64,000 bases of DNA from Lentisphaerota bacterium (GTDB lineage Bacteria > Verrucomicrobiota > Kiritimatiellia > UBA8416 > JAIOPI01), in assembly GCA_021413965.1 (NCBI GenBank), contig JAIOPI010000019.1, positions 4,585-68,584 on the forward strand, written 5' to 3'. Positions 2,293-53,851 of the stretch are shown in pieces; position 1 is the first letter of the stretch, and every line of letters begins with the position of its first letter. The notes below the pieces were generated by a model, which was not told where the DNA came from, did no database searches, and worked only from the letters and a program-made list of their open reading frames with translations. The position numbers and the translations under genes are program-made.

Positions 2293-2305
2293 GCCTCTGC
2301 GACTC

Positions 2306-2605: not shown

Positions 2606-2655
2606 TCGTCAAAAGATTGTCAATCTACGAAGGGGAATATTGGCGGGCGTCCCCG

Positions 2656-3450
2656 CTAGCGCGCGTCGAAACCGGGGCGCACGAAGGTGCGCGCCTTGGG
2701 GAATTCGCGCTCCGTCAGGCGGCGGAGGCGGGTCAGTTGCACGAGCAAATCCAGGATGGCATTCTCGGATGGCGGTAGGTGGGCGCACAGTCGGCCCCAG
2801 GCGGCAATGGAGTGATCCATGCCGAGCAGGGCCACCTTGGCGGAGCCGTCCGCGTCCGTCGGGTCGCCGGGATGCTCGGCCGGGGACGGCTCATGCAGCA
2901 GGGCGCGCATCAGTTTGGTGTGGATCTGGTGCTGGTGCCAGAGAATCACCTCCACGCCGTCCTCGATCGCGGCCGCATCGTGTTCGGGGCGGTGCCCCGT
3001 CAACGCCTCCGTGCGGATGGCGCGCCGCGCGCGCACCGTTTCCTGCACGAGCGGTTCATGGGCCCGAAACCAGGCGTCCACACGGTTCTCGTAGTCGCGG
3101 GAAAGTCGTGCCAGGGGATGGGTCTTGGTGGATTCGCGTCGCCGCGATGCTTCGCGTGTGTAGGCGTTCATCTCGGCCTCATCCAGATTGATGCCATGCT
3201 TGGCCGCCATCTCGCTCACCATCTTCAGCGTCTGGGACATCGTGTCGCCGAGTTCTTTCCAGAACAGGGAATCGCTCGCCGCGCCCGCGCCTGGGTGGCG
3301 GTGGCGTTCGCGCCGGGAATCGTAGATAGCGCAACGCGACGTCATGGCGCAGCGCTCGCACCAGCGGTCGCAGTAGTTGTAGATGCCAGGAATGGGTTTT
3401 GAATCGCCGGGACCGCGCGTGGGAGAATGCGAGTTTTTCATGTCGTCCAC
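2656..3450 (-). CDS. hypothetical protein with N-terminal CX3CX2C cysteine motif
   Basis: 264-aa ORF with a YCDRWCERCAMTSRC motif near the N-terminus. The rest of the protein resembles no family I recognise. Confidence 0.45.
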   Translation of the reverse strand: MDDMKNSHSPTRGPGDSKPIPGIYNYCDRWCERCAMTSRCAIYDSRRERHRHPGAGAASDSLFWKELGDTMSQTLKMVSEMAAKHGINLDEAEMNAYTREASRRRESTKTHPLARLSRDYENRVDAWFRAHEPLVQETVRARRAIRTEALTGHRPEHDAAAIEDGVEVILWHQHQIHTKLMRALLHEPSPAEHPGDPTDADGSAKVALLGMDHSIAAWGRLCAHLPPSENAILDLLVQLTRLRRLTEREFPKARTFVRPGFDAR

Positions 3451-3574
3451 TCACCAAAGGAAAGGCCATCCGGCGCGGATACGCAAGGTCATTTTGAGCA
3501 GGGGCGACGCATCTGGGGCTGGCAACGGGCGCGGTTTTTGGGTTAACTGCCCGGGGTTAGCAACGGGAGGACCC

Positions 3575-5008
3575 ATGGCAGCACCCGCATTGATCACCGA
3601 CGACTTTCTGCTCCAGACGAAGGCCGCGCGCCGGCTGTACCACGACTACGCGCGCGACCTGCCCATCATTGATTACCACTGTCACCTGCCGCCCGCGGAG
3701 ATTGCCGCGGACCGGCGCTACGCGAACATGACCGAGATCTGGCTGGCGGGCGACCATTACAAGTGGCGCGCGATGCGCACGAACGGCATCGCTGAGCGCT
3801 ACTGCACCGGCGATGCTCCGGCGTGGGATAAGTTTCAGAAGTGGGCGGAGACCGTGCCGCGGCTGTTGCGCAATCCCTTGTATCACTGGACACATCTCGA
3901 ATTGGCGCGCTACTTCGGCATATCCGACCGCCTGCTGGGCCCGGACACGGCAAAGGGCATCTGGGACGCCGGCAACGCGTGCCTGCAACAGCCGGATTTT
4001 TCATGCCGCGGGTTGATGACGCGCAGCAAGGTCGTGCTGGTCTGCACCACCGATGACCCGACGGATGCGCTGGACCACCACCGGTCCATCGCGGCTGACA
4101 GGTCCTTCGGCGTCCAAGTGCTGCCCACCTGGCGGCCGGACAAGGCGATGGCGGTGGAAGACCCGAATGCGTTCAATGCCTGGGTGGACCGTCTGGCCGC
4201 GGCGGCCAAGGTGGAGATCAACGGCTGGAGCGCGTTCCTGGATGCCTTGCGCAAGCGCCAGGGCGTCTTTCATGACGCCGGCTGCCGGCTCTCGGATCAT
4301 GGCCTGGAGACGGTATACGCGGAGCCTTACACGGAGGCCGCCATCAAGCGCATTTTCACGCGCGTACGCGGCGGCGAAGCCCCGAGCCGTGAGGACGCGC
4401 TGAAGATCAAGTCCGCTCTGCTCTACGAATTCGGGATCATGGACCATGCGCAAGGCTGGACCCAGCAGTTCCATCTCGGGGCCTTGCGCAACAACAACAC
4501 GCGCCTCTTCAAGAAGCTGGGACCGGACACGGGCTTCGATTCGATCGGGGATTTCGAGATTGGGCGCCCGCTGGCGAAGCTGCTGAACCGGCTGGACGAA
4601 ACCGATCAGCTTCCGCGCACGATTCTCTATAACCTGAATCCACGCGACAATGCGTTGATGGCCACACTGATCGGCAATTTCCAGGACGGCAGCGTGCCGG
4701 GCAAGATTCAGTGGGGCAGCGGCTGGTGGTTCCTTGACCAGAAGGACGGCATGGAGCAGCAGCTTGAGGCGCTGTCGCAGATGGGCCTGCTCAGCCGGTT
4801 CGTGGGCATGTTGACGGACAGTCGGTCATTCCTTTCGTACACGCGGCACGAGTATTTCCGGCGGATCTTCTGCAACCTGCTGGGGCGGGACATGGAGGGC
4901 GGCTTGATCCCGAACGACTTTGAGCTGGTTGGCGGGTTGGTGCGGGATGTGGGCTACAATAATGCCGCGCGGTACTTTGGGTTCAGCAAGGTGAGTCCGC
5001 TGGCGTAG
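3575..5008 (+). CDS. uxaC: glucuronate (uronate) isomerase
   Basis: Carries the UxaC signature IIDYHCHL and shows full-length similarity (477 aa). GGGAGG RBS sits 5 nt upstream of the ATG at 3575. Confidence 0.85.
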   Translation: MAAPALITDDFLLQTKAARRLYHDYARDLPIIDYHCHLPPAEIAADRRYANMTEIWLAGDHYKWRAMRTNGIAERYCTGDAPAWDKFQKWAETVPRLLRNPLYHWTHLELARYFGISDRLLGPDTAKGIWDAGNACLQQPDFSCRGLMTRSKVVLVCTTDDPTDALDHHRSIAADRSFGVQVLPTWRPDKAMAVEDPNAFNAWVDRLAAAAKVEINGWSAFLDALRKRQGVFHDAGCRLSDHGLETVYAEPYTEAAIKRIFTRVRGGEAPSREDALKIKSALLYEFGIMDHAQGWTQQFHLGALRNNNTRLFKKLGPDTGFDSIGDFEIGRPLAKLLNRLDETDQLPRTILYNLNPRDNALMATLIGNFQDGSVPGKIQWGSGWWFLDQKDGMEQQLEALSQMGLLSRFVGMLTDSRSFLSYTRHEYFRRIFCNLLGRDMEGGLIPNDFELVGGLVRDVGYNNAARYFGFSKVSPLA

Positions 5009-41321: not shown

Positions 41322-41660
41322 CTATCGATTGCGCAAGAAGCGGACTTCGACGCGCAAGCGCTCCACTTCGTCCAGCAAGTTCAGTAGCGTTCGAATCAGG
41401 GGTAGTTGTAGCCCGTGCACGACCCGCAGGTGTTCGATCCGCCGCGCCGTGCGAATGGCCTCTTCGCTGAATGCCATGGCCCCAACCGGCGGCAGCAGAA
41501 CGGGGTGCACGAGTCCGGCGCGACAGTAGATCAGCAAGGACCGTCGCGTGACGCCCGCGAGCCGGGCGGCCATATCGAGGCTGTACAGCGCATCCGGCTG
41601 GGGTTCGAACACCTCCAGGGCCTGGGCTGGCGCGCGATCGGCATCTGATGGCGTGTTCAT
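41322..41660 (-). CDS. cbpM: chaperone modulator CbpM-like (MerR-type HTH)
   Basis: ~110 aa with YSLDMAARLAGVTRRSLLIYCRAGLV HTH. ATGA overlap with the upstream cbpA stop; canonical cbpA-cbpM pairing. Confidence 0.6.
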   Translation of the reverse strand: MNTPSDADRAPAQALEVFEPQPDALYSLDMAARLAGVTRRSLLIYCRAGLVHPVLLPPVGAMAFSEEAIRTARRIEHLRVVHGLQLPLIRTLLNLLDEVERLRVEVRFLRNR

Positions 41661-42628
41661 GGGGATTGCCTCGGCTTCTGCCGCGCTTGGGCGGCCAGTT
41701 GTTCCCACAAAGCCTTTTCATCCGGTGTCAGCTGCGACGGGACCTGGATGCTCACGACGGCATAATAATCGCCCCGCGTCCCGTTTCCCGTGGGCAACCC
41801 CTTGCCCCGGAGACGAAAGTGCTTGCGCGCCGCTGTACCGGCCGGAATTTTCAGGGACACCTGCCCGTCCAGCGTGGGGATAAGGACAGCGGAACCCAAG
41901 ACCGCGTCCCATGGGGATACTTCCACATGGTGATAGAGGTCGGCACCGCGCACCTGGAAGTCCGGGTGTTGTGCGAACCTGACACTGAGGTAGAGATCCC
42001 CTGAGGGGCCTCCGCCGTGGCCGGTTTCGCCTTTGCCCGCCAGCCGAACGAGTTGGCCGTCCCGGACACCGGGCGGAATCCGGACCCGTAACGTCTGCGT
42101 GGTGGCTTGCCTGGTGCGGGGATCGGTGCGCTGCAACCGGATGGTGCGCGTCGACCCGCTCACAATTTCGGCGAGCGTCACCAGCAGGCCGCTCTCGACG
42201 TCCCGGCCACGCCGGGGGAATGGTGTGTTCTCTGCGCCCGCCGTGCGGCTCTGGTCAAATCCGGCGAAGGGGTGTTCACGGCCGCCAAAGAACTGCTCAA
42301 AGAAATCGCTGAAGCCGGTGCCCTCAAAATGGAATTCAGTCCCCGTGCCGGCCTGCCCGCCAAAGCCCCCAGGTGCTGCGGCTGCTTGCCGCGCGGGGTT
42401 GTTCCAGTCAGCGCCCAGCTCGTCGTATCGCCGCCGCTTGTCCGGATCGCTGAGAACTTCGTTGGCCTCGTTGATGTCCTTGAACCGGGATTCGGCGGCG
42501 GTTTTGTCCTTGGCGACGTCGGGATGGTAAAGGCGGGCGAGCCTGCGGAACGCCTTCTTGATGTCGTCGCCGGTCGCGTCGCGCGCCAACTCCAAAACTG
42601 CGTAGTAGTCCTTGTATTCGACCGGCAT
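41657..42628 (-). CDS. cbpA: curved-DNA-binding protein CbpA (DnaJ-like co-chaperone without Zn finger)
   Basis: J-domain KDYYAVLELARDATGDDIKKAFRRLARLYHPD with HPD. Gly-rich linker and two C-terminal DnaJ beta-domains; no CxxCxGxG repeats. Confidence 0.8.
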   Translation of the reverse strand: MPVEYKDYYAVLELARDATGDDIKKAFRRLARLYHPDVAKDKTAAESRFKDINEANEVLSDPDKRRRYDELGADWNNPARQAAAAPGGFGGQAGTGTEFHFEGTGFSDFFEQFFGGREHPFAGFDQSRTAGAENTPFPRRGRDVESGLLVTLAEIVSGSTRTIRLQRTDPRTRQATTQTLRVRIPPGVRDGQLVRLAGKGETGHGGGPSGDLYLSVRFAQHPDFQVRGADLYHHVEVSPWDAVLGSAVLIPTLDGQVSLKIPAGTAARKHFRLRGKGLPTGNGTRGDYYAVVSIQVPSQLTPDEKALWEQLAAQARQKPRQSP

Positions 42629-42727
42629 GACCGACTCCCGGGTGAGCACCCACGAGGGATGCGGCGATGGCGGTTGCGAGTCGCCGCGGCGTGGCGCCGG
42701 CAGGAAGCGCGCGGCACGTCGGGAGCC

Positions 42728-42919
42728 CTAACCGTAAAAGTACTCGGGGCTGACGTTCTGGCTGCCAGCCAGAACGATCACAGGCGCCTTGTCGTCCGCG
42801 CGATCCCGCGGTCGCGCGGTGGTGGCCGAAACGGTGCAAGTATCCTCCGACCTCGTGTAGGCCTTGGGGGGCACGTCGATTTCGATCGGGTGGTATTCGA
42901 CTCTGGGCTGGGTCGCCAT
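42728..42919 (-). CDS. small hypothetical protein (63 aa)
   Basis: ORF only; sits between the stress-motif gene and cbpA. Confidence 0.3.
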   Translation of the reverse strand: MATQPRVEYHPIEIDVPPKAYTRSEDTCTVSATTARPRDRADDKAPVIVLAGSQNVSPEYFYG

Positions 42920-42934
42920 CGGGCACCTCCTCGG

Positions 42935-43318
42935 TTACGGCATGCGCACGGGAAATTCCTGTCCGGAGTGCTCCGCAGGGCGCACGCGGAGTTGCAGTGG
43001 TCGCCGGCCTCCGAAAAGGCGAACGGGGTGGCCGGGTTTCTGCACGATGTTCATGACCAGGTTGATGGCGGCGGCGGTGCCATCGTAGAGCACATGGATC
43101 TTGCCGCGCTCCGCATCAATACGCACGGCGTTCACCCCCGGGATGGCTTCCAGCCGTGCCTTGATGTCCTCCGGCGGCTCCACCCCCCCGCATGGCGGCT
43201 GCATGCCCAGCACGGCGAAGGCCGGCTGCGGGCTTCGTGGCTCCAGCGCACGATCGGCGTGATCACGATTACCCAACGGGGTTTCAGCCGAACCCTTTGC
43301 TCTCATAGTCACGACCAT
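42935..43318 (-). CDS. hypothetical protein
   Basis: ORF starting MVVTMRAKG; preceded by a conserved motif copy at 43342-43361. The longer version of the ORF (to 43393) would contain the motif. Confidence 0.35.
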   Translation of the reverse strand: MVVTMRAKGSAETPLGNRDHADRALEPRSPQPAFAVLGMQPPCGGVEPPEDIKARLEAIPGVNAVRIDAERGKIHVLYDGTAAAINLVMNIVQKPGHPVRLFGGRRPLQLRVRPAEHSGQEFPVRMP

Positions 43319-43341
43319 ACCGCCGCGGTAAACCGAGATGC

Positions 43342-43361
43342 CATGGGGTAAAACCCTACCA
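43342..43361 (-). promoter_or_regulatory. conserved motif copy 1: CCATGGGGTAAAACCCTACC (gene-strand reading GGTAGGGTTTTACCCCATGG)
   Basis: One of five near-identical ~20-mers, each found upstream of a stress-type gene. Confidence 0.5.
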
Positions 43362-43411
43362 ATCGCCCATCGGCCGCGAACCGAACGCCGCATCGCGCAT
43401 CGACCGCGCGG

Positions 43412-43807
43412 TCAGCTTGGTGGAAGCCGGCGCGAGGCCTTTCGAAGGAGTTCCGTGACGCCCGACTTGTCCATCCAGGCTTGCTCCTGGAAGGCGGCGC
43501 GCAGCGCCACCCAGCCAGCCGCGATGTAGCCGCCCCCGAGGATCATGCCGAGGAGCGCCTTGGCCGCCATGCTCCAGGGGAGCAGGATGAAGAGCCCGAT
43601 GTGGAACATCAGCACGCCCAGGCCCAGGAGCCCAACCATGAGCACGATCTGCAACAGGCCGAGCGCCGACAGCCGGGCCAGCTGGACCCCGCGCACGTAG
43701 CACGCCGTCGCCTCGATCCGCAGCAGGTCCGTCGTGGCGCGCCGGTAATCGGCCAGCAGCTTCACCACGAGTCCCGCCTGCAATCCCCTGATCAGAAACT
43801 TGAGCAT
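43412..43807 (-). CDS. YqjE-like inner-membrane protein (putative holin-X / phage_holin_3_6 superfamily)
   Basis: ~130 aa with two TM helices. Directly downstream of the DUF883 gene, as in the yqjD-yqjE pairing. Confidence 0.45.
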   Translation of the reverse strand: MLKFLIRGLQAGLVVKLLADYRRATTDLLRIEATACYVRGVQLARLSALGLLQIVLMVGLLGLGVLMFHIGLFILLPWSMAAKALLGMILGGGYIAAGWVALRAAFQEQAWMDKSGVTELLRKASRRLPPS

Positions 43808-43827
43808 CGCGTCGCCTGCGGCTGGGG

Positions 43828-44169
43828 TTACTTCGGGTTGCGACCCAGAATGGCGCCCAGCAGCAGTCCAACCACGGCTGATCCCGCAATGAACGCCCAC
43901 GGGTTCTGGTGCACCGACTTGTCCACGTCGCGCGTGATCTCACACGCCTTCGCGACGCTCGCCTCTTTCGCGTGCGTCGCCGCTTCGCTCGCGTGGTGCC
44001 GCGCTTCGGTCAGCGACTTGACCAGGCCGGTTTCGGTTTCCACAATCACGTTCTTCAGATGCGTGTACTTGTCGGACATGAGGCCCTTCAACTCGTCCTT
44101 CTTTTGCGTGGCCGCTTCCTCCAGCAGTTTCAAGGCTTCCGCAAGGTTCTCGCTGCTTGTGTGCGTCAT
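43828..44169 (-). CDS. DUF883 family ribosome-associated membrane-anchored stress protein (ElaB/YqjD/YgaM-like)
   Basis: Helical N-terminal region and C-terminal TM anchor (NPWAFIAGSAVVGLLLGAILGR); ~113 aa. Confidence 0.65.
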   Translation of the reverse strand: MTHTSSENLAEALKLLEEAATQKKDELKGLMSDKYTHLKNVIVETETGLVKSLTEARHHASEAATHAKEASVAKACEITRDVDKSVHQNPWAFIAGSAVVGLLLGAILGRNPK

Positions 44170-44250
44170 GACAACACTCCTTCTGACATTCTGTTTACGT
44201 TCCCGATTCCATCTGAGTAAGGCCACGCTACGCCGTGCGCCTGCTCGCGG

Positions 44251-44270
44251 CTATGGGGTAAAACCCTACC
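44251..44270 (-). promoter_or_regulatory. conserved motif copy 2: CTATGGGGTAAAACCCTACC, ~80 nt upstream of the DUF883 gene
   Basis: See motif copy 1. Confidence 0.5.
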
Positions 44271-44308
44271 TGCCGAAGACGCCGGCGCGCGTGGCCGAGG
44301 GATGTCTC

Positions 44309-44887
44309 TCAAATGAAGCCAAGGACAGGTCTCTGCCAGCCCCCGGTCTCGGCGCCGATATGCATCTTCAGATACGAGGTGAGCGACGCCTCGGAAGACA
44401 AGCCCTTGCCATCGTTCAGCCAGGTCAGCAGGTACTTGGTGAACAGCCCGTGATCGCCGCTTTCAAACGCCTCGTACGTGGATGCCGCCAGAATCTTCCG
44501 GGTCCCTGACGTCTTCAGGCCGAGGCCGATGTAGCAGCAATCTAGCACCAGCATCGTCTGCGCGCGGGCAATGTCGGTGAGCGCAAGGTCGCCATCTCGC
44601 AGAATCAGTCGACCGGTTACGGCGTGACCCGCGAAGTACACCAGGTCGGGGTGACGCGCCAGCGCCTCCAGGACCTTGGCGCGCGTGACGTCCAGGCCCG
44701 TCAACGTCTGGACATCATCCCCCAGGCGCGTGAACGCCTGTGCCATTTCGGTGGCGTCATTCTCCGCGTATCGCAGTTGGGGATACCGATCGTAGGCGTT
44801 CAGCCCGATACAGAGCACCGTGTCGGCTCCCGCACTCATCAGCACCGTGGCGATGAGCGCACCGAGCAGGATCTTCGCGCGACGCAT
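44309..44887 (-). CDS. minimal secreted caspase-family (peptidase C14-like) protein
   Basis: Signal peptide MRRAKILLGALIATVLMSAGA. His block YFAGHAV and Cys block LVLDCCYIG are in caspase-like order and spacing; 192 aa. Confidence 0.5.
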   Translation of the reverse strand: MRRAKILLGALIATVLMSAGADTVLCIGLNAYDRYPQLRYAENDATEMAQAFTRLGDDVQTLTGLDVTRAKVLEALARHPDLVYFAGHAVTGRLILRDGDLALTDIARAQTMLVLDCCYIGLGLKTSGTRKILAASTYEAFESGDHGLFTKYLLTWLNDGKGLSSEASLTSYLKMHIGAETGGWQRPVLGFI

Positions 44888-44994
44888 GAGCGGGGGCTCC
44901 TTGTTGAAGCGGTTGCCGGAGCGCGGCCACCGGTCGGGTCATGAGGCAAGTGGGATTCAGATGAGATGACATTACGGGCGCTCGCCGGTCGTGA

Positions 44995-45014
44995 CCATGG
45001 GGTCTAACCCGTAG
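44995..45014 (-). promoter_or_regulatory. conserved motif copy 3: CCATGGGGTCTAACCCGTAG, ~110 nt upstream of the caspase-like gene
   Basis: See motif copy 1. Confidence 0.45.
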
Positions 45015-45040
45015 ATTCCGCGAACAGCGGGGGCGTGGCG

Positions 45041-45062
45041 TGGGGTAGGGTTCAGCCCCATG
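45041..45062 (+). promoter_or_regulatory. conserved motif copy 4 (opposite orientation): GGGGTAGGGTTCAGCCCCATGG, ~75 nt upstream of entericidin
   Basis: Reverse complement matches CCATGGGGCTGAACCCTACCCC; orientation is consistent with a + strand target. Confidence 0.45.
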
Positions 45063-45133
45063 GCGTGAGGACGTCGCGCGGACTAGGGTGCTGGCAGATC
45101 GAGGCCACATTCCGTCGGACGCGGGGAGCTGAT

Positions 45134-45262
45134 ATGAAAATACTATGCGCCATGTTGATCATGCTGGGGGCGTCGTTGACCATGCTGGGCTGCAATACCG
45201 TGAAGGGTGCGGGGCAGGACGTTGAAAACGTGGGCGATGCGATGAAAGACGCCGTCAATTGA
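45134..45262 (+). CDS. ecnB: entericidin A/B family small lipoprotein
   Basis: MKILCAMLIMLGASLTMLGCNTVKGAGQDVENVGDAMKDAVN: lipobox LGC plus the conserved entericidin core; GGGGAG RBS. Confidence 0.8.
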   Translation: MKILCAMLIMLGASLTMLGCNTVKGAGQDVENVGDAMKDAVN

Positions 45263-45363
45263 TGCTCGGCATGCGACCGTCCGGGATGGCCGTGCGCTAC
45301 CGGGCGGCGCAGGCGGGCGCGGTCGGGTCCGGGCGCGCGCACATTGAATCAGGTTCGTCCAGT

Positions 45364-46881
45364 ATGATGAAGACGAGCAAATTGATCCGTGGGAGCCGCG
45401 TGCGGATAGGCCTCCTGGTTGCGGTCATGCTGCTGCCGCGAGTCGGCAAGGCGCAGGGGCCCGCCCCCGCCGCTGAACCGTCGACCAAAGCGTCCGACGC
45501 CACACCAGGCCCGCGGGTAACCAGCTACGAAGGGGCCGGCCCTCAGCCCCGGGTCGGGGTGGCCGAGGAAACCGTGACCGGTGAATCGTGGGGCGACTAC
45601 AGCTATGTCATCCCCTTTCTGGAAGTGGTTGCGTTTGAGGCCACGCTGAATATCTATGACCGGGCGTACCAGGAGGAGGGGACGTACGACACCACCTACA
45701 AGACGTTCGAGCGCAATTTCAAAACCGCGCCAGTGGTCGATGCCGACACGTTTCAGATCAATCAGCTCTATCATCCGTACCAGGGCGCGATGTATTTCGG
45801 CTTTGGACGGTCGGCGGGCCTCAGCTACTGGCAATCGTTGCTGTACAGCATGGGCGGCAGCGAACTCTGGGAAACGGCGGGCGAAACGGGACCGCCGTCC
45901 TTCAACGACCAGATCGCCAGCGGCATCGGCGGGAGTTTTCTTGGCGAGCCGCTCATTCGCATGGCCAGCCTGCTGCTGGAGGGGGGCGGCGCTCGGCCAG
46001 GCCCCTGGCGGGAAGCCGGCGCGGCGATCATCTCGCCGCCGACGGGCATCAATCGCCTCGCGTTCGGCGAGCGCTTCGACAAGGTGTTCCCCAGCCACAA
46101 CCCGCCGACCTTCACGCGCGTGCGGCTCGGCCTGAGCACCACGTCGCGACAGTCGGATAATGGCCATGTGGAAACGTATGACCGGCAGCAGGTGAGCGCC
46201 GACTTCCTGATGGCCTATGGACTCCCGGGTAAGTCGACGTACACCTATGACCGTCCATTCGACTACTTCAATTTCGAATTCGCCGCCGGCTCCGGCGAAG
46301 GGACGTTTCAGAACATCATGAGCCGCGGCCTGCTCTACGGAACCGACTATGAGGCCGGTGAATCCTACCGCGGCATCTGGGGATTGTATGGGAGCTACGA
46401 CTACATCTCGCCCGATACCTTTCGCGTTTCCAGCACGGCTGTCTCGCTCGGAACCACGGCGCAATGGTGGCTGATGCCGGATGTGGCGCTGCAGTACTCC
46501 GCCCTGGGGGGCGCCGGATATGCGGCCGCGGGCACCATCCACGGGGAAGATGAGCGCGACTACCGTTACGGGGCGACGCCGCAGGCACTTCTGGATCTCC
46601 GCCTCATCCTGGGTGACCGGGCCATGCTGGACGCCACGGGTCGCGAGTACTACATCAGCGACGTCGGCGGCACGAGTCCCGGGGGATACGAACTGATTGG
46701 ACGCCAGAACGTCGGCGTCACCATCCGCGTGTGCGGGCAGCACGGCCTTGGGGTCCGACTCGTACGCACGACCCGGGATGCCCATGTGGACGGTTTGAGC
46801 GCCAGGGAGCAGATGGAAAGCATCGTCAGCGTGGCGTACACCCTTCTTGGCGACGACAACTTCGGCGCGGTCGAGTGGTGA
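45364..46881 (+). CDS. hypothetical secreted protein (505 aa), Gly/Tyr-rich, possibly outer-membrane associated
   Basis: Signal peptide MMKTSKLIRGSRVRIGLLVAVMLLPRVGKAQG; no recognisable catalytic motif. Confidence 0.4.
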   Translation: MMKTSKLIRGSRVRIGLLVAVMLLPRVGKAQGPAPAAEPSTKASDATPGPRVTSYEGAGPQPRVGVAEETVTGESWGDYSYVIPFLEVVAFEATLNIYDRAYQEEGTYDTTYKTFERNFKTAPVVDADTFQINQLYHPYQGAMYFGFGRSAGLSYWQSLLYSMGGSELWETAGETGPPSFNDQIASGIGGSFLGEPLIRMASLLLEGGGARPGPWREAGAAIISPPTGINRLAFGERFDKVFPSHNPPTFTRVRLGLSTTSRQSDNGHVETYDRQQVSADFLMAYGLPGKSTYTYDRPFDYFNFEFAAGSGEGTFQNIMSRGLLYGTDYEAGESYRGIWGLYGSYDYISPDTFRVSSTAVSLGTTAQWWLMPDVALQYSALGGAGYAAAGTIHGEDERDYRYGATPQALLDLRLILGDRAMLDATGREYYISDVGGTSPGGYELIGRQNVGVTIRVCGQHGLGVRLVRTTRDAHVDGLSAREQMESIVSVAYTLLGDDNFGAVEW

Positions 46882-46891
46882 TCGAGCGGCG

Positions 46892-47740
46892 TCATGGGGG
46901 CGACATCGGCCGCGGTGTTGGAGGGGCCGCCGCCTGCTCTGTGCCGTTGCGCACGAGGTTGCGGCGATACTGGAAATAGGCATCCCGCAAGGCGATGTAG
47001 GGATCGATGGCGGCCTGCTTGAAATCCTCGTACTCGCCCGGTCGGAGCGATGTGTGGTTCACGGTGTCATACGACTTGATGCCAGCGCGATATTCCCACT
47101 GAGGGACAAGGTAGTAGGTGGGGTCGAGAAAGAAGTCCCCGACGGAGCCGACGGTGTCGCGGGCGCAGGAGGGCCCGAAGATGGGCCAGTTCAGGTAGAT
47201 GGAAGGCCCGAGCCCATACCGTCCGAGGGTCTGTCCGAGATCTTCGTTGCGTTTCTCGAGTGCCCACCGGTGGCGGGCCGGATCGCCGAAGCCAGCCACG
47301 CCGACCGTGGTGTTGATGGCAAATCGTTCCAGTTCCACCCAGGCACCCTTGAACTCGGCTTGGAGCGTGCAACTCACCAGCCTGACGGGCGTGGCCAGGT
47401 TGGAGAAGAAATTGCGCACGCCGCGCCGCGCCGTCGACGGCAACACGTAGCCGTACCCCCGCGATACGGGCTTCAATACCCAGAAATACAGCTTGTCGTT
47501 GAAATGAAAGAAGGCCCGGTTGATGGGCTCCAGCGGATCCGAAACGGCGACCGGCAACGCTACGGGCACGACATCCGGGACCCCACCGATCCCGGGCAGC
47601 GGCGCCTCCTCCTTCGGGGCGTCCGCGATCACGGGGGGACGCGCGGTCGCGCCGGCGCCCGGCTGTGGCCCCGAGGCCGTGCTACGGCAGCCGGCACAAC
47701 TCAGCAGCGCAAGCGCGAGGCATCGACCGGCCGTTTTCAC
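46892..47740 (-). CDS. mlaA: MlaA/VacJ family outer-membrane lipoprotein
   Basis: Lipobox LLSCAGC; VacJ blocks DPLEPINRAFFHFND, NFFSNL, INTTVGVAG, GQTLGRYG. Confidence 0.8.
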   Translation of the reverse strand: MKTAGRCLALALLSCAGCRSTASGPQPGAGATARPPVIADAPKEEAPLPGIGGVPDVVPVALPVAVSDPLEPINRAFFHFNDKLYFWVLKPVSRGYGYVLPSTARRGVRNFFSNLATPVRLVSCTLQAEFKGAWVELERFAINTTVGVAGFGDPARHRWALEKRNEDLGQTLGRYGLGPSIYLNWPIFGPSCARDTVGSVGDFFLDPTYYLVPQWEYRAGIKSYDTVNHTSLRPGEYEDFKQAAIDPYIALRDAYFQYRRNLVRNGTEQAAAPPTPRPMSPP

Positions 47741-48405
47741 AGCACATCTTTCGCCGGCACCGGCGTTGCCGCCGGAGGCTCGTCCTTGGGCGCGTCCGGA
47801 ACGGGCGCACGGGAGGCGATCTTCGTCTTCAGCCGTGCGACGAGGACATCATACGAGGAGCTGCCAAGAATGGCGCCGACCTGGCTGCGATAGTTGTTCA
47901 CCAGGCTGACGCCTTCGATGCTGACGTCATAAACCAGCCATGCCGGCCCCTTCTGCAGCATGCGGTAGCTGACCGGGATGTCCGTGCCGCGGAGGGTGAC
48001 GATCGCGACATCCACCACTCCGTAGGTCCCCTCCACCTTGTCGCCCTTGTAGAGGATCTTCTCTCCCGAATAGCTTTCCACCTTGGTCATGTAGGTCTTC
48101 TCGACCAATTCGCTGAAGAGATCGGTGAACTCGGTGCGCTGCGCATCGGTCAGCTCCTTCCAGTGATTGCCGAGGGCGCTGCGGGCCATGGACGCCCAGT
48201 CGAAGCGTTCGTCCACCACCAGGTCCATCTGGGCCTGCCGCGCGCGGTCCTGTTCCGGCCCTTTCATGGCCGGGTCCTGGACAATGGCGAGAATCTTGTC
48301 CGTCGTCTGCCGGAGTTGATCCGTGGGGACCCCGGCCAGGGCGAGCGCCGGAGCGCCGCACAACAGCAACAAGGTCAACAGCGGGTGTCTGTACCATGCG
48401 TTCAT
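47737..48405 (-). CDS. mlaC: MlaC/Ttg2D periplasmic phospholipid-binding protein
   Basis: Signal peptide plus Ttg2D-like blocks and position in the operon. Confidence 0.65.
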   Translation of the reverse strand: MNAWYRHPLLTLLLLCGAPALALAGVPTDQLRQTTDKILAIVQDPAMKGPEQDRARQAQMDLVVDERFDWASMARSALGNHWKELTDAQRTEFTDLFSELVEKTYMTKVESYSGEKILYKGDKVEGTYGVVDVAIVTLRGTDIPVSYRMLQKGPAWLVYDVSIEGVSLVNNYRSQVGAILGSSSYDVLVARLKTKIASRAPVPDAPKDEPPAATPVPAKDVL

Positions 48406-48434
48406 CGTCGGTCCTCCTGGTTGATTGATGAGGC

Positions 48435-48878
48435 TCAAAGATCGCCGAAGGCGTACTTGCTGATCAGCGACTCGATATCGACGGCCGATTCCGTCTGTCG
48501 GATCGTCCCGCCCGCCGGGATGATGCCGTCCGCGGCGCCAGCACTGACTTGCACGTACTTCTCGCCGATCAGGCCGCTGGTCTTGATGGATACGATGGCG
48601 TCGTCGTGGATGGCCAGGCCCGGATCGATCTCCAGCACGACCTTCGCCGCATAGTCTGTGAGCGCAATGCTGACCACGTGGCCAACGTCCACGCCGGCAA
48701 CGACCACCGCGGCACCGCGCCGCAGTCCGCCGGTATCACTAAAGACAGCGGAGACTTCGTAGCCGTGCTTGCCCAGGATTGCGAGGTTCCCCAGCTTGAT
48801 CGACAAATACGCCAGGCAGAGCAGCCCGATGACCATGAAGGCCCCCACGTACAGTTCGAGATTTAATCGGCGCCTCAT
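48435..48878 (-). CDS. mlaD: MlaD (MCE-domain) inner-membrane protein
   Basis: N-terminal TM plus MCE domain. Confidence 0.75.
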   Translation of the reverse strand: MRRRLNLELYVGAFMVIGLLCLAYLSIKLGNLAILGKHGYEVSAVFSDTGGLRRGAAVVVAGVDVGHVVSIALTDYAAKVVLEIDPGLAIHDDAIVSIKTSGLIGEKYVQVSAGAADGIIPAGGTIRQTESAVDIESLISKYAFGDL

Positions 48879-49675
48879 GATGGTGTTTCCCCCTTTTCTA
48901 TCGCACCCGACTCGGCGGGGTCCGGTTCTGAAAATCGATACTCAGCTTTTGGCAGACTGCCCCGGATGAAATCCCGCACAACGCTGTCCCGGGTCGCGAA
49001 GATCTCCTTGGGGGTGCCGACGAAGCGAATGACGCCCTCGTGAAGGACCGCCACCTTCTGCACAAACCCAAACACTTCGGGAATTTCGTGGGACACGATG
49101 ATGCCGCCGAATCCGAGCCGCTTATGGGTCGCCGCGATGAGGGCGTGGATGGAGTGGACGATGATCGGGTCGAGCCCGGTGGTGGGTTCGTCGAACAGCA
49201 TGATTTCCGGCGAGCGCACCAGGGCGCGCGCGAGGGCGGCGCGCTTCGCCATCCCGCCGCTGAGCTGGGCGGGATACTTGTCTTCAGCCCCCTCCAGCCC
49301 CACTTGCTCGAGTTCACCCAGCACACGCGTCCGAATGTCCGCTTCACTCAGCCGGGTCTTCTCCCGCAGGGGAAACGCCACATTCTCAAAGACGGTCATG
49401 GAATCGAAGAGGGCGCCGTTTTGGAAGAGGAAGCCAAAGCGGCCGCGCAGGGCCGCCAACTCGCGGTGGCGCATATGGCACAGATCCTTCCCGTTGAACA
49501 CCACCCGCCCCTCATCCGGCCGCAACAGGCCGGCCACGTGTTTCAGGAACACACTCTTGCCCTCGCCGCTCGGCCCGATCAACGCCACAACGTCCTTGTC
49601 CTGGACGTCAAGTGACGCGCCCTTCAGGACCGGCACGCCGCCAAACGATTTATGCAGATTCTGAATTGCAATCAT
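48875..49675 (-). CDS. mlaF: MlaF ABC transporter ATP-binding protein
   Basis: Walker A GPSGEGKS, ABC signature LSGGMAKR, Walker B MLFDEP. Confidence 0.85.
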   Translation of the reverse strand: MIAIQNLHKSFGGVPVLKGASLDVQDKDVVALIGPSGEGKSVFLKHVAGLLRPDEGRVVFNGKDLCHMRHRELAALRGRFGFLFQNGALFDSMTVFENVAFPLREKTRLSEADIRTRVLGELEQVGLEGAEDKYPAQLSGGMAKRAALARALVRSPEIMLFDEPTTGLDPIIVHSIHALIAATHKRLGFGGIIVSHEIPEVFGFVQKVAVLHEGVIRFVGTPKEIFATRDSVVRDFIRGSLPKAEYRFSEPDPAESGAIEKGETPS

Positions 49676-49683
49676 GGCTCGCC

Positions 49684-50478
49684 TCAAAACAGGAGCGACG
49701 TCATCACGTAGTCGCACACCAGGATCAAAACCGATGACAGAACCACGGCCTGTGTCGTCGCCCGGCTCACGCCCTCCGCGCCAAATCCGGTGTAGAATCC
49801 CTTGTAGGAACAGACCCAGGCGATCAGGCCACCGAAGCCGACCGACTTGTAGAGCCCCGCGAGGACGTCCTTGACCTCAACGTAGTCCGCCATCGACCCG
49901 AAGTAGGTCCCCGCGCTGACGCCCAGCAACTTCCCCCCCACCAGGTAGCCCCCCAGAATTCCCATCACGTTGAAGATGGCCGTCAGCAGCGGCACGGACA
50001 CGAGCGCCGCGAGAAAGGGCGGAACGACGAGATAACGATGCGGGCTCAGTCCGAGCATCTCCAGTTCATCGATCTGCTCCGTAATCCGCATGATGCCCAG
50101 CCTGGCCGTGACGGCGGAGCCCGCCCGCCCCGTGACCATCAGTGCCGCCATGACGGGGCCAAGCTCCCGCAGCAGTGACAGCGCCACCATCGGGCCCAGG
50201 AAGGCCGTGGAGCCCACCCGCGAGAGCGTGTAGTACCCCTGGAACGCGATCACCATCCCCGTGAACGCGCCGGTCAACACAATCACCAGCACGGAGCCGA
50301 CACCAATGAAGTGGATTTGCTCCAGAACGCGAAACAGCTTCAATGGTGGCGCGAAGGCGTAGAACAGCGTCTGCGCCAGGAACAAGCCCATCCGTCCCAT
50401 GTCACCGACCACCGCGATGGTCATCCGTCCCATCATCCTGACGGGACGCAGAATCCCGCGGTCAGCCGGATGCTCCAT
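49684..50478 (-). CDS. mlaE: MlaE ABC transporter permease
   Basis: Five-TM MlaE-type permease starting MEHPADRG. The long upstream in-frame extension (to 50778) is likely not coding. Confidence 0.75.
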   Translation of the reverse strand: MEHPADRGILRPVRMMGRMTIAVVGDMGRMGLFLAQTLFYAFAPPLKLFRVLEQIHFIGVGSVLVIVLTGAFTGMVIAFQGYYTLSRVGSTAFLGPMVALSLLRELGPVMAALMVTGRAGSAVTARLGIMRITEQIDELEMLGLSPHRYLVVPPFLAALVSVPLLTAIFNVMGILGGYLVGGKLLGVSAGTYFGSMADYVEVKDVLAGLYKSVGFGGLIAWVCSYKGFYTGFGAEGVSRATTQAVVLSSVLILVCDYVMTSLLF

Positions 50479-50504
50479 GGGTGATGTACCTCGGTGCGGA
50501 CGAT

Positions 50505-51041
50505 TTAGAAGCGCCAGTTGACCAGAACCATGCCGGGTGCCAGTTCGTCCGGCAGCGCCGTGAACCACGCATTGGCGGGGAGGAGATTCACCAGGCCGAT
50601 CTGCACCCCGGTTTCCGCATTCTCCGCGTAGTTGACGAATCCGAATTGAAGGCCCGTCAAGTCGCCCGCATAGTTCACCAGCCCCGTCTGCAGACCCTTC
50701 ATGCGTCCGTCGGTGTAGTTCACGAACCCGTTCTGCCAGCCGAGAAAGTCGCCCTTCGTGTAGTTGACCGACGCCCACTGAACGCCCGTGTAGTTGTCTG
50801 CGTAGTTGAGTATGAACGCGAGGCTCAGGCCCTTGCTGTCACCCGTGGATCCGTTCACCAGGCCCAGGGCCAGCGCCGACTGTTGATTCTCGCCCCAAAT
50901 GTTGAGGATCAGGCCTTCCACCGTCTCGCTCCGGTCGACCAGCGCGATATCCGGCGTCAAACTGAGCTGGAGTGGTGCGTTGGCGGCGAATGTTCCGCCC
51001 GCAATCAGGGCAATTCCCAGGCAAGTCAGGAGTGTCTTCAT
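50505..51041 (-). CDS. secreted protein with five tandem ~14-aa G-[VWL]-Q-x-G-x-VNY-[AT] repeats
   Basis: Signal peptide MKTLLTCLGIALIAGGTFA. Repeats GVQWASVNYT / GWQNGFVNYT / GLQTGLVNYA / GLQFGFVNYA / GVQIGLVNLL. Confidence 0.5.
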   Translation of the reverse strand: MKTLLTCLGIALIAGGTFAANAPLQLSLTPDIALVDRSETVEGLILNIWGENQQSALALGLVNGSTGDSKGLSLAFILNYADNYTGVQWASVNYTKGDFLGWQNGFVNYTDGRMKGLQTGLVNYAGDLTGLQFGFVNYAENAETGVQIGLVNLLPANAWFTALPDELAPGMVLVNWRF

Positions 51042-51056
51042 GGCGTATCGTTCCCG

Positions 51057-51143
51057 TTATTCAATTGTCAGCATGCGGCACCCGGCCACGACACACGTCA
51101 GTATCGCAAGAAGCCAGATGCACAAGGTGGCGAGTCGGTTCAT
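51057..51143 (-). CDS. possible micro-lipoprotein (28 aa; lipobox VAGC), speculative
   Basis: MNRLATLCIWLLAILTCVVAGCRMLTIE inside a 63-aa ORF. A motif copy lies upstream. Confidence 0.2.
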   Translation of the reverse strand: MNRLATLCIWLLAILTCVVAGCRMLTIE

Positions 51144-51282
51144 CACGGCGAGTCTCCTCTCTCGTGCAGGCCCTCCGGTTCCTGGCATGCTCAACTCGTG
51201 AGGCCGCGAGCGAGTGGTCGTGTCATCGCGTCTGGTGGTGGGTTTCATGTATGCACAGCCTACGCAGGGCGGTGGTGTGTTG

Positions 51283-51303
51283 CCATGGGGTGGAACCCTA
51301 CTC
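51283..51303 (-). promoter_or_regulatory. conserved motif copy 5: CCATGGGGTGGAACCCTACTC
   Basis: See motif copy 1; upstream of the minus-strand micro-ORF / repeat-protein unit. Confidence 0.45.
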
Positions 51304-51409
51304 CGTCCATGCGCGTCCGAGCCCGGCTTGTCTCCGGGCCGTCGGCGCGGCGGGACGCCGGACGCAGGGGGCCGTGATGCCCGAGGGGAATGGACGCGGC
51401 GGATGCCGC

Positions 51410-53851
51410 TTATGGAGACCAGGTCACGCGCAGGCGGTAGAAGTCATTTGTGCCAATGCCGGCGGGGTCGAGGCAGAGGAATCGGTTGCTGGCGCTGACG
51501 TAGGCCACGTCGCCCGTGGCAAGATCCGACCAGCCGGACATGCCATGGCTGCGTTGCACGTGGTACCCAACCGCCGTTCCTGCCTGGGATTGGGTCGCGC
51601 TGCCCCAGTTGCCAACCACGGCGTCACCGCCCGGCAGCGCCTGCCATGCCACGCCGGGACGGCCGCTGCCGTCGATGGTCACCCCCGAGAGCGCAAACGC
51701 CATCGGCGCCAGCGGATCCAGGCCGAAGGCGGTCTTCACCCGGAACGGAATCCCGTCTTCGCCGGCCGCGTCAGGATTCCGGGGATCATGCGCGAATCCC
51801 GTGAACGCGTAAGCCTCGAAATCGTTCACCCCGTCACCGTTGCTGTCGGTGTAGCCGTCAACGGGACCGGCGCCCGCGGTCGTCAGATTGGCGAAGTGCT
51901 GGTACTCCCAATCGTCGCCCAGGACGTCGCCGTCCGTGTCGGCGGGGCTCAGCGTCAACACGCTGTTGCTGATGGACGTCGGCACGCTCAAGGGCATGGG
52001 GAAATAGTGATTCGTACGGACGAAGCCCGCCGTTTCCCAGTCGTCCGCCACGCGATCGCCGTCCTGGTCGAGGAACGCGCGCACGCAGTGGGTGCCGTTC
52101 GACAGCCCGGCCAGGCGGAACGCGAAGGCATTGCCGGGCCAGTGCGCGGCGTCAGCGGTGTTGGGCAGTGTGATTTGGGCTTCCGACTCGGGCGCGAAGC
52201 CGGGGCCTGCAAAGGCCTGGACAACAAACTGACCGTTGGTGGCCTTCCCGAAGTAGAACAGTGATCCGGAAATGGAATACGGGCCGTCCGGCTGGTCGGT
52301 CAGGTCGACGCGGAAGGCGCGCGCGACGGACCAGGCGCCCGTGGTTTGCGGGTTGAGCCCCCGCGCGCGCCAGTAATACGTCCCCGGCGGCAGCTGAGCA
52401 TCTCCGGCACGAACCGGCAGGCGATAGACAAAACGCCCATTCTGATCGGGATAGGGCGCCAGGAAGGTGGCGTCGATTATTTTGGCCCCAAAGTCCGCAC
52501 TGCCCGCGACCTGCACCGAGACGCGGGACGCGCCGCTCGCCCCGGACCAGCTGAGGTCGATGCCAGCCGTGGTGAACACATGGCTGTCGGCGGTGACCAG
52601 CACCGGGGCGGTCAAGGTGGGCGGATAGGTCACGGTGAACGTGCTCGAGGTGATCAATTGGTCCGAGCCGTTGACGACATGATAGGCCAGCCACTCGTAA
52701 GCGCCCTGCGGCAAACCGTTCACGCCGCTGTTCTGGAAATCCACTTCATAAAGCCACGCGCGCGGTGCCGCGATGGTGCGATTGAGCACGTTGGGCTTTC
52801 CAGGGAGGCTCGCGCTGCGGATGATGATGTGATAGGTCAGGGCGCCGTCCTGTGGCGGCCACGCAACCCGCGCGTAGCCGGGAAGCGCATAGCCGGGCTG
52901 GCTGGCATTCGGCTGCGAGTCGCTCAATTCCAGCAGGACGGGGCCCACGCGACCCCAGGCGATGCGACTGGGGCGCGCTGGCGCGAGGCCGGCCGGCTCG
53001 CCGGCGTTCCACGCCCCGTTGGTGTTGGCGTCGTAATAGGCGAAGAACCAGGCGTCACCTTCCCGCAGCCGGCCGCTGTCCCACGTGCGGATCGTCAGGC
53101 TTCGGGGGTGGGCGCCAGTCAGATTCGTCACGGTCACCGCGGCATCAGGGGCGCCATCCATCGTGGCCGCGTGGTAGGCCAATACACGGAGAGGACCGGC
53201 ATCGAGCGTGCCGCCGTAAGACACCATGAACAGCACCTCGGGCACGGGTGTTGCAGCCGCATCGGCGGGATTGCCGAGTCCGTTCGTGGCCAGGGATGTC
53301 GGATCCACGCCGCCGAGAAATTCGGACCGGTTGCGCCATCCATCGGCATCGCCGTCACAATGGGCATCGAACACGCGCGGGTCCAACATCATGGAGGCTT
53401 CCCACGCATCGCCCTGGCCGTCGAAATCGGTGTAGGCGGCACCGAAGATGCGAAAACGATTGCTGCCGGTCGAGGCCCAGTCGAAGAAATCCGAAAGACC
53501 CGTGCCCCGTGTGTCCGCGTTACGGGGATTCAGGGCGCGGCCCGTGGTGACGAGGATTTGATATTCGGCCAGATTGTTGAGTCCGTCGAGATCGGGATCG
53601 CCGAGCGCGCCGTCAACACCGGCATCGGAGGACTCGTCGAAGCCGTACGCCTGTTCCCAAGCATCGGGAAGACCATCGCCATCGGTATCCGGTTCAACCG
53701 CGGTGGTCGGCGTGGAAGACGGCGATGGGGCGGCCGCGAGCAGCGCAAGTGCGCAGAAGCCCTGTAGAAGACCGCCGCAGGCCCAGGTAGTCGCTGTCGC
53801 TCGCCAAGGCAAGACCGCCCCCTTGTCCTCCGGTTTCACAGGCCGGTGCAC
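51410..53851 (-). CDS. large secreted protein with thrombospondin type-3-like Ca-binding repeats and Ig/FN3-like beta domains
   Basis: Signal peptide, then repeated D-x-D-x-DG-x-x-D-x-x-E motifs (DTDGDGLPDAWE, DPDLDGLNNLAE, DTDGDVLGDDWE, DSNGDGVNDFEA). 813 aa. Confidence 0.55.
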   Translation of the reverse strand: MHRPVKPEDKGAVLPWRATATTWACGGLLQGFCALALLAAAPSPSSTPTTAVEPDTDGDGLPDAWEQAYGFDESSDAGVDGALGDPDLDGLNNLAEYQILVTTGRALNPRNADTRGTGLSDFFDWASTGSNRFRIFGAAYTDFDGQGDAWEASMMLDPRVFDAHCDGDADGWRNRSEFLGGVDPTSLATNGLGNPADAAATPVPEVLFMVSYGGTLDAGPLRVLAYHAATMDGAPDAAVTVTNLTGAHPRSLTIRTWDSGRLREGDAWFFAYYDANTNGAWNAGEPAGLAPARPSRIAWGRVGPVLLELSDSQPNASQPGYALPGYARVAWPPQDGALTYHIIIRSASLPGKPNVLNRTIAAPRAWLYEVDFQNSGVNGLPQGAYEWLAYHVVNGSDQLITSSTFTVTYPPTLTAPVLVTADSHVFTTAGIDLSWSGASGASRVSVQVAGSADFGAKIIDATFLAPYPDQNGRFVYRLPVRAGDAQLPPGTYYWRARGLNPQTTGAWSVARAFRVDLTDQPDGPYSISGSLFYFGKATNGQFVVQAFAGPGFAPESEAQITLPNTADAAHWPGNAFAFRLAGLSNGTHCVRAFLDQDGDRVADDWETAGFVRTNHYFPMPLSVPTSISNSVLTLSPADTDGDVLGDDWEYQHFANLTTAGAGPVDGYTDSNGDGVNDFEAYAFTGFAHDPRNPDAAGEDGIPFRVKTAFGLDPLAPMAFALSGVTIDGSGRPGVAWQALPGGDAVVGNWGSATQSQAGTAVGYHVQRSHGMSGWSDLATGDVAYVSASNRFLCLDPAGIGTNDFYRLRVTWSP

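Follow-up and report, generated by a model that had tools for sequence, protein, structure and literature searches.

Five oriented copies of a 19-nt motif precede stress-type genes

The DNA analysed here is a 64,000-nucleotide stretch of a Lentisphaerota bacterium genome (contig JAIOPI010000019.1, positions 4,585 to 68,584 of the forward strand; below, the 64-kb window, with a G+C content of 65.8%), and our subject is a short motif that recurs in it upstream of genes of a stress-response type. An original prediction, made from this DNA, had listed five near-identical copies of the motif, all oriented in the same way relative to their downstream genes. We searched the window with the pattern CCATGGGGT-NN-AACCCTAC (in full CCATGGGGTNNAACCCTAC; 19 nt, with a variable spacer of 2 nt) and, when up to three mismatches were allowed, obtained exactly five matches, as against a mean of 0.11 in dinucleotide shuffles of the window, none of which (0 of 100) reached five. 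In a weight-matrix scan of the whole 64 kb the five sites scored 23–31 bits and no further site exceeded 14 bits. All five copies are intergenic, and at each of them the sense strand of the downstream gene reads GTAGGGTT-NN-ACCCCATGG, such that the orientation of motif to gene is identical throughout. The count and the consistent orientation that had been predicted are thus upheld; the predicted spacer of three nucleotides is not, as the literal N3 pattern gave only one match at up to three mismatches where the N2 pattern gave five.

Sites 1, 2, 3 and 5 carry the search pattern on the + strand and face genes on the − strand. Site 1 (43341-43359) and site 5 (51283-51301) match the pattern without mismatch and read GTAGGGTTTTACCCCATGG and GTAGGGTTCCACCCCATGG, respectively, in the sense of their genes; site 2 (44251-44269; GTAGGGTTTTACCCCATAG) has one mismatch, and site 3 (44995-45013; TACGGGTTAGACCCCATGG), the most diverged, has three. 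Site 4 (45045-45063; one mismatch; sense GTAGGGTTCAGCCCCATGG) carries the pattern on the − strand, faces genes on the + strand and stands back-to-back with site 3, a layout that is also found at six loci from other genomes (L014, L016, L025, L026, L046 and L073). Predicted coordinates of 44251, 44995 and 51283 were therefore exact, those of 43342 and 45041 move to 43341 and 45045, and the copy at the latter position is indeed inverted.

Genes in the window were called from third-position G+C content (GC3) and open reading frames (ORFs) and were identified with Pfam; the calls agree with those on a matching Logan contig. Behind site 1 lies a unit on the − strand (41322-43318) that consists of an HMA-like hypothetical gene (42935-43318), which comes first, a 63-aa ORF (42728-42919), a DnaJ/CbpA-like gene (41657-42649) and a MerR-family, CbpM-like gene (41322-41708). 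Site 2 precedes a second unit on that strand (43412-44169), made up of a DUF883 (ElaB/YqjD-like) gene (43828-44169) and a gene for a 131-aa membrane protein, its partner (43412-43807), and site 3 precedes a gene for a caspase-like Peptidase_C14/CHAT-like protein with a signal-peptide-like N-terminus (44309-44887, −). The unit behind site 4 (45134-46881, +) comprises an entericidin gene (45134-45262) followed by a gene for a DUF3943 protein (from about 45259 or 45364 to 46881), and the two are probably co-transcribed. These Pfam assignments agree with the identities originally given to the DnaJ/CbpA-like, CbpM-like, DUF883, caspase-like and entericidin genes. (Note that the DUF883 partner originally called YqjE-like had no Pfam match at E<=0.01 and that the LVNY-repeat protein described below likewise had no Pfam match.)

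The unit behind site 5 (46892-51248, −) begins with a micro-lipoprotein ORF (51057-51143, or starting from 51248) and a gene for an LVNY-repeat protein (50505-51041), after which come mlaE, mlaF, mlaD, mlaC and mlaA (46892 to about 50478). Because they share a strand and are separated by short gaps only, the micro-lipoprotein, LVNY and Mla genes probably form one operon, and site 5 would then probably drive the Mla genes too. In the closest relative (L101), whose Mla proteins are 70–82% identical in amino acids, a perfect site stands directly before mlaE, so that Mla appears to belong to the regulon. The MlaE/F/D/C and MlaA genes in the window make up a complete outer-membrane lipid asymmetry cluster. 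The ORF at 51057-51143 has 28 codons and a textbook lipobox (…VVAGC), lies 15 nt upstream of the LVNY-repeat gene and would leave, after processing, a lipopeptide of only 7 residues. A gene for an 813-aa TSP3-repeat protein (51410-53851, −) ends just upstream of site 5 and has no site of its own.

A predicted -10 box lies at a fixed distance behind the motif

To describe the motif by bases that the search pattern does not itself force, we derived a natural consensus from near-matches (1–3 mismatches), which reads G T [A/c/g] G G G T [T/a] [A/T] [C/t] A C C C C A T [G/A/c] G. Its core, GTnGGGT-N3-ACCCCAT, forms an imperfect 7-3-7 inverted repeat, and on the promoter-proximal side this core is extended by an asymmetric nG(C) tail. 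Five of the six inner positions of the dyad are symmetric, and two half-sites of this kind suit a dimer of GerE domains.

We then compared base frequencies around 133 exact sites from other genomes, oriented in the sense of the downstream gene. Outside the searched pattern the only conserved positions were a G just before it, a C just after it and the hexamer T-A-N3-T at offsets 39-44 (T 0.52, A 0.77 and T 0.77). TANNNT occurred at offsets 38-41 in 56% of 121 exact sites and at 1.8% of random positions, and at offset 39 it occurred on the sense side of 57 of the 133 sites and at the mirrored position of none. Moreover, 80 of 89 near-matches at the same loci (1–3 mismatches) carry a -10-like ANNNT at the right distance. 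The intervening spacer of 20 nt is not conserved.

All five sites in the window have such a box, at offset 39 in four cases and offset 40 in one. The predicted -10 boxes are TATGGT for site 1 (43314-43319, −; 21 nt after the motif, the case with offset 40), TAGCGT for site 2 (44225-44230, −; 20 nt after the motif), TAATGT for site 3 (44969-44974, −), TAGGGT for site 4 (45084-45089, +) and TAGGCT for site 5 (51257-51262, −). A scan of the five sites for a sigma-70 consensus promoter with a -35 hexamer found none, and no TTGACA-like hexamer lies 17 nt upstream of the -10 box. On the assumption that transcription begins about 7 nt beyond this box, the motif would span roughly positions -51 to -33 of a promoter without a -35 consensus, and the centre of the dyad would fall near -42/-43, where it would overlap the place of the -35 element. 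This would be the geometry of a class II activator, examples being LuxR and TraR (sites centred at -42.5) and CRP and FNR (-41.5), and the likeness depends on the predicted start. Since its inverted repeat overlaps the -35 position, the most likely function of the motif is to bind an activator.

The called ATG of the first gene behind site 1 (43318) lies within the predicted -10 box, and a second ATG in the same frame, at 43306, adjoins the predicted start of transcription (about 43307). Site 5 resembles site 1 in that the ATG at 51248 adjoins the start predicted there (about 51250). The mRNAs from these two sites may be leaderless.

The motif marks a putative general-stress-like regulon in several phyla

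When one genome per GTDB species was scanned for the exact pattern, at least 120 loci (referred to here by L numbers) were obtained, overwhelmingly from Verrucomicrobiota, Lentisphaerae/Victivallales, Kiritimatiellae, Phycisphaerae/Sedimentisphaerales and Acidobacteriota (Terriglobia and Solibacter). Among the matches listed, those in Verrucomicrobiota cover all major classes, including Akkermansiaceae, Opitutaceae, Methylacidiphilaceae and Limisphaerales. By chance, roughly 70 matches to 17 fixed bases would be expected in about 1.2e12 positions, and the few single matches in Dietzia, Limnocylindria and a 'Proteobacteria' metagenome-assembled genome (MAG) are compatible with chance. (Five contigs labelled 'uncultured Bifidobacteriaceae', L039, L051, L061, L072 and L102, all from binchicken MAGs, carry several sites and a MlaA homolog; they are almost certainly mis-binned or mislabelled contigs of the Planctomycetota–Verrucomicrobiota–Chlamydiota (PVC) group.) Among the fetched loci the proteins of the window are most similar to those of the bin-7679 MAG (L038 and L101), a Kiritimatiellae MAG and a Lentisphaerales MAG, and by this protein similarity the organism is a PVC bacterium.

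Whether copies fall mainly inside coding regions was a check that the original prediction had itself named. The longest ORF over a site has a median length of 124 aa, as compared with 383 aa at random positions, and the sites are thus preferentially intergenic.

To see which genes the motif precedes, we clustered the first ORFs behind 225 sites and scanned them against Pfam. The families found were BON/OsmY-like proteins (16 loci), giant Ice_binding/TSP3 proteins (12), CsbD (9), proteins with RsbU_N and HisKA_3 domains (8), DUF5670 (6), response regulators (5), entericidin (4) and PRC-barrel proteins (4), together with DUF3309, OsmC, YflT, dodecin and phosphoketolase. Families of this kind are signature families of the RpoS, sigma-B and EcfG regulons. 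Several targets from the window recur behind the motif in other lineages: orthologs of the LVNY-repeat protein at L089, L016 and L043; the DUF883 gene, its partner, CbpA and the MerR-family gene at L038, where the pairing of DUF883 and partner is kept (partner identity 49%); and the CbpA-MerR unit also at L001, from Phycisphaerae. Also recurrent are secreted proteins of very large size that carry Ice_binding and/or bacterial TSP3 repeats (L029, L003 and others).

It had been proposed that the motif is a general-stress promoter or operator that defines a regulon, and the fixed -10 box, the intergenic bias, the stress families at at least 120 loci and the orthologs of the window's targets all speak for this. 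The proposal had concerned this organism; the signal is conserved across several phyla and is not organism-specific. Of the two protein types that had been assigned to the regulon, the repeat protein is corroborated by its LVNY orthologs, and for the caspase-like protein the evidence is that of the window itself. As we delimit it, the regulon in the window has five units, headed by the HMA-like gene with CbpA and the CbpM-like protein, DUF883 with its partner, the caspase-like gene, entericidin with DUF3943, and the micro-lipoprotein with LVNY, the last probably with Mla.

A two-component operon is the best candidate for the regulator

The regulatory genes that recur most often behind the motif form one operon of three genes. 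The first encodes a protein of roughly 230 aa that combines an RsbU_N-like domain, a coiled coil and a HisKA_3 (DHp) domain and lacks an ATPase domain; the second encodes its paralog of roughly 380 aa, a complete RsbU_N-HisKA_3-HATPase_c kinase; and the third encodes a REC-GerE response regulator of roughly 224 aa (Response_reg plus GerE, NarL family). Regulator orthologs (47–62% identity) are present at 24 of 120 motif-selected loci and the kinase at about 25. The order motif, short paralog, kinase, regulator is found at L010, L016, L026, L002, L055, L054, L070, L028, L069 and L014, and at L044, L073 and L114 the motif stands directly before the regulator gene. The short paralog lies, for example, at L010:304-999, L016:317-1021, L026:189-869, L002:2523-3227, L055:4012-4659(-) and L014:2758-3438. 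In six of nine examples its phospho-acceptor histidine is replaced (LQDE, LQNE, LDNE or MNDE). The short paralog may be a pseudo-kinase that acts as a feedback modulator.

Since loci chosen by the motif carry a selection bias, we removed it by a reverse test in which 80 metagenome loci were chosen by two peptide patterns of the regulator alone. These loci contain 52 sites (<=3 mismatches) in 397 kb where 0.9 would be expected, an enrichment of about 57-fold, and the association of motif and operon therefore holds in both directions. Upstream sequence of 2.5 kb or more was available at 32 of the regulator-selected loci, and 12 of these have a site in sense orientation before the operon. Several of the remaining loci have a diverged variant, GTAGGTCwTCACCCCAyAA, at the same place. 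This lineage variant lies directly upstream of the regulator gene at, for example, L158 (~4906), L174 (~1734), L184 (~2064) and L159 (~271). The recognition helix of the regulator, S-I-K-T-V-E-K-H-R, is invariant from Verrucomicrobiota to Terriglobia, in parallel with the invariance of the DNA motif, and the closest solved relatives of the protein are VraR, NarL, DevR/DosR and DesR. Neither the regulator nor the kinase reaches an NCBIfam equivalog cut-off.

These associations lead us to consider it probable that the motif is a class-II-type operator bound by the NarL-type response regulator. According to this model the 19-nt motif would be the upstream half of a bipartite, activator-dependent promoter and the TANNNT -10 box its other half. 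A dimer of the REC-GerE regulator would bind the 7-3-7 dyad and, when phosphorylated, would recruit RNA polymerase carrying a primary-type sigma factor. A general-stress-like regulon would thereby be switched on, including the operon of the regulator itself as a positive feedback. Somewhat more tentatively, in that we place it a little below an even chance, we propose that PVC bacteria (Verrucomicrobiota, Lentisphaerota, Kiritimatiellota and Phycisphaerae) and Acidobacteriota share a hitherto unrecognised general stress response that is run by this autoregulated two-component module, without an alternative sigma factor. The shared module would consist of the RsbU_N-HisKA_3 kinase, its DHp-only pseudo-kinase paralog, the NarL-type regulator and a nearly invariant 19-bp class II operator.

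Several observations weigh against the operator interpretation. The remaining 20 of the 32 testable regulator loci have no site at up to three mismatches. Homologs of the regulator and the kinase are absent from the 64-kb window (tblastn), and their presence in the organism is assumed from its relatives. A number of the RsbU_N matches fall below the Pfam gathering score. The link between regulator and motif would be one of guilt by association, and both the -10 box and the start of transcription, on which the class II position of the dyad depends, are what we infer from conservation. The strict directionality of the motif and its asymmetric conserved flanks (G before, nGC after) would also fit an element read by a sigma factor. 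Finally, in two Acidobacteriota MAGs (L107:4492-5661(+) and L120:5944-7119(-)) the gene directly behind the motif encodes a group-1/2-like sigma factor of 390 aa. The best NCBIfam matches of this sigma factor are RpoD, RpoS and SigB, all below cut-off; it looks like a member of the regulon, which suggests a cascade from regulator to sigma factor in Acidobacteriota. (L035, L120 and L110 adjoin one another and together make up an island of sites 24 kb long.)

Alternative explanations

One alternative is that the motif is the operator of another transcription factor, encoded elsewhere, and that the two-component operon is the best-conserved member of the regulon and a downstream step in a cascade. 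The association with the operon is genomic only, regulatory genes often belong to a regulon whose master regulator is another, and ECF (extracytoplasmic function) sigma factors, the group-2-like sigma factor and a FlgM-like protein are also encoded behind the motif, all of which would be in keeping with such a cascade. However, no other DNA-binding family recurs as often or as broadly behind the motif, the geometry of the inverted repeat fits a GerE-domain dimer, and the roughly 57-fold enrichment was obtained at loci that had been selected by the regulator. We therefore judge a separate factor unlikely, while allowing it some weight.

We think it rather doubtful that the motif is instead an extended upstream, -35-type element of a dedicated alternative sigma factor comparable to RpoS, sigma-B or EcfG. 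The idea has precedent, in that the well-studied general stress responses all use alternative sigma factors, and it would account for the strict orientation, the rigid spacing to the -10 box and the asymmetric flanks, as well as for the group-1/2-like sigma gene behind the motif at the two Acidobacteriota loci. Yet the conserved element is 19–21 nt long, is dyad-symmetric and would reach to about -51, beyond the contacts of sigma region 4; the distance of 31 nt from its GGGTT block to the -10 box is larger than a -35/-10 pair allows; and that box, TANNNT, is of the generic kind that primary-type sigma factors use. In addition, no sigma gene recurs behind the motif at PVC loci, where only two ECF genes were seen, and the sites do not match the established consensus patterns of RpoS, sigma-B, EcfG or sigma-54 promoters.

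The individual promoter types were set aside as follows. An RpoS promoter has an extended -10 element of the TCTATACTTAA type, with C at -13 and no upstream dyad; here the base before the -10 box is G (0.47) more often than C (0.20), the conserved element is an upstream dyad, and no rpoS-type gene is linked to the motif at PVC loci. The elements of an EcfG promoter (GGAAC-N16-17-CGTT) are absent from the site logo, in which the -10 box is TANNNT. As for a sigma-B promoter (GTTTAA-N12-14-GGGTAT), the motif has GGGTAA on its antisense strand only, and the -10 TANNNT lies 20 nt downstream. Sigma-54 and sigma-32 ('CCCCAT') promoters were ruled out against the logo on spacing or orientation.

A repressor operator, at which a protein bound over the -35 region would block RNA polymerase until stress releases it, is in our estimation no better a candidate than a sigma-factor element. 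A site that overlaps the -35 region is also a classic position for a repressor, and the direction of regulation in the activator model is something that we infer. Against repression, the promoters lack a -35 consensus, as is typical of activator-dependent promoters and not of repressed strong ones, and sites of the NarL/LuxR family near -42 are typically activating, as with LuxR and TraR at -42.5.

It is very improbable that the copies of the motif are dispersed repeats, or RNA hairpins within a transcript, and play no part in transcription initiation: the core is self-complementary, and for two of the five copies the fold is somewhat better than that of shuffles, but the folds differ from copy to copy (z-scores +0.6 to -1.9), the flanks of the copies are dissimilar apart from the -10 box, the position of that box downstream means that the motif would not be transcribed, and the sequence is conserved across phyla before functionally related genes. 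A structured cis-regulatory RNA was rejected in that there was no Rfam family match and the folds were inconsistent and, overall, not better than those of shuffles; in the region 42800-51600 no relevant Rfam match was found at E<=1, the single sub-threshold match, to a frameshift element, being irrelevant. A dispersed intergenic repeat of the REP (repetitive extragenic palindrome) or MITE (miniature inverted-repeat transposable element) kind was rejected on the unconserved flanks and the strict orientation to genes.

Comparison with known systems

The activator model has its closest counterpart in mechanism in the DosR/DevR regulon of Mycobacterium and its closest counterpart in promoter geometry in the class II promoters of LuxR and TraR. 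Like DosR, which works with the kinases DosS and DosT, the candidate regulator is a NarL/GerE-type response regulator paired with a HisKA_3 kinase; a G-run and a C-run form a palindrome that would overlap the -35 region; the operon, with its accessory first gene, would be autoregulated; and the regulon is one of small stress or dormancy proteins. DevR is, moreover, among the closest solved structures of the regulator. The half-sites differ, however, since the DosR palindrome GGGACT-WW-AGTCCC has 8 nt from GGG to CCC and the motif described here, GGGTT-NN-ACCC, has 5 nt. The kinase sensor also differs (RsbU_N-like here, GAF in the DosR system), as do the phyla and the regulon content. Because half-site sequence and spacing and the sensor differ, and because no equivalog model is reached, we do not regard it as a member of the DosR system.

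At LuxR and TraR promoters (lux or tra box at -42.5) a dyad site about 42 nt upstream replaces the -35 element and a normal -10 box is kept, as would be the case here. Those proteins, unlike the regulator considered here, bind acyl-homoserine lactones, have no receiver domain and recognize a box of 18–20 bp with an unrelated sequence, and the exact centre compared with theirs follows from the predicted start of transcription.

In content the regulon is strikingly parallel to those of RpoS in Gammaproteobacteria, sigma-B in Firmicutes and EcfG in Alphaproteobacteria, with which it shares OsmY/BON, CsbD/YjbJ, entericidin, ElaB/YqjD (DUF883), OsmC, CbpA, PRC-barrel and YflT proteins. It departs from them in that its cis-element fails their promoter consensus, has the geometry of a transcription-factor site and is linked to a two-component regulator.

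Histidine kinases with an RsbU N-terminal domain have been described in stressosome operons of Proteobacteria (PMC12143880). The kinase of the operon resembles these in joining an RsbU_N-like dimerisation or partner-binding domain through a coiled coil to a HisKA_3 kinase. Unlike at the proteobacterial operons, RsbT and RsbS were not found by tblastn at any locus (a weak negative), and a paralog with only the N-terminal and DHp domains is present instead. For the proteobacterial systems that paper describes neither a regulon nor an operator.

Novelty and implications

We know of no general-stress regulator or regulon for Verrucomicrobiota, Lentisphaerota, Kiritimatiellota, Planctomycetota or Acidobacteriota. 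Literature searches on the literal motif strings, PVC stress regulons, RsbU_N kinases and Akkermansia promoter maps returned no description of the motif, the regulon or the regulator in PVC bacteria or Acidobacteriota; as coverage was incomplete, this is absence of evidence. The element is ordinary in kind, being a response-regulator operator in an activator-dependent promoter if we read it correctly, and new in identity, and at about 30 bits it is unusually well conserved across phyla.

These phyla are abundant in soil, freshwater and the gut, and their members are mostly uncultured. A cis-element of roughly 30 bits with a fixed -10 partner makes a regulon readable straight from the sequence of a MAG, and it assigns to a stress programme dozens of families whose functions are unknown, among them the LVNY-repeat and caspase-like proteins, DUF5670, DUF3309 and the ice-binding-like giants. 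The analysis also names a concrete candidate regulator. It would show that stress content of the RpoS, sigma-B or EcfG type can be wired through a response regulator and not a sigma factor. Should the shared two-component response be real, the general stress response would have been solved independently a third or fourth time, here in a form that can be read directly from the sequence of uncultured genomes.

Kai-type genes adjoin the response regulator at two loci

At L114 (Opitutaceae; about 2547-4307 (-) and downstream) and at L110 (Terriglobia; about 1250-3200), KaiC-like and KaiB-like genes together with a gene for a PAS histidine kinase adjoin the response regulator. This neighbourhood hints that Kai-type timing or energy sensing is connected with the stress regulon.

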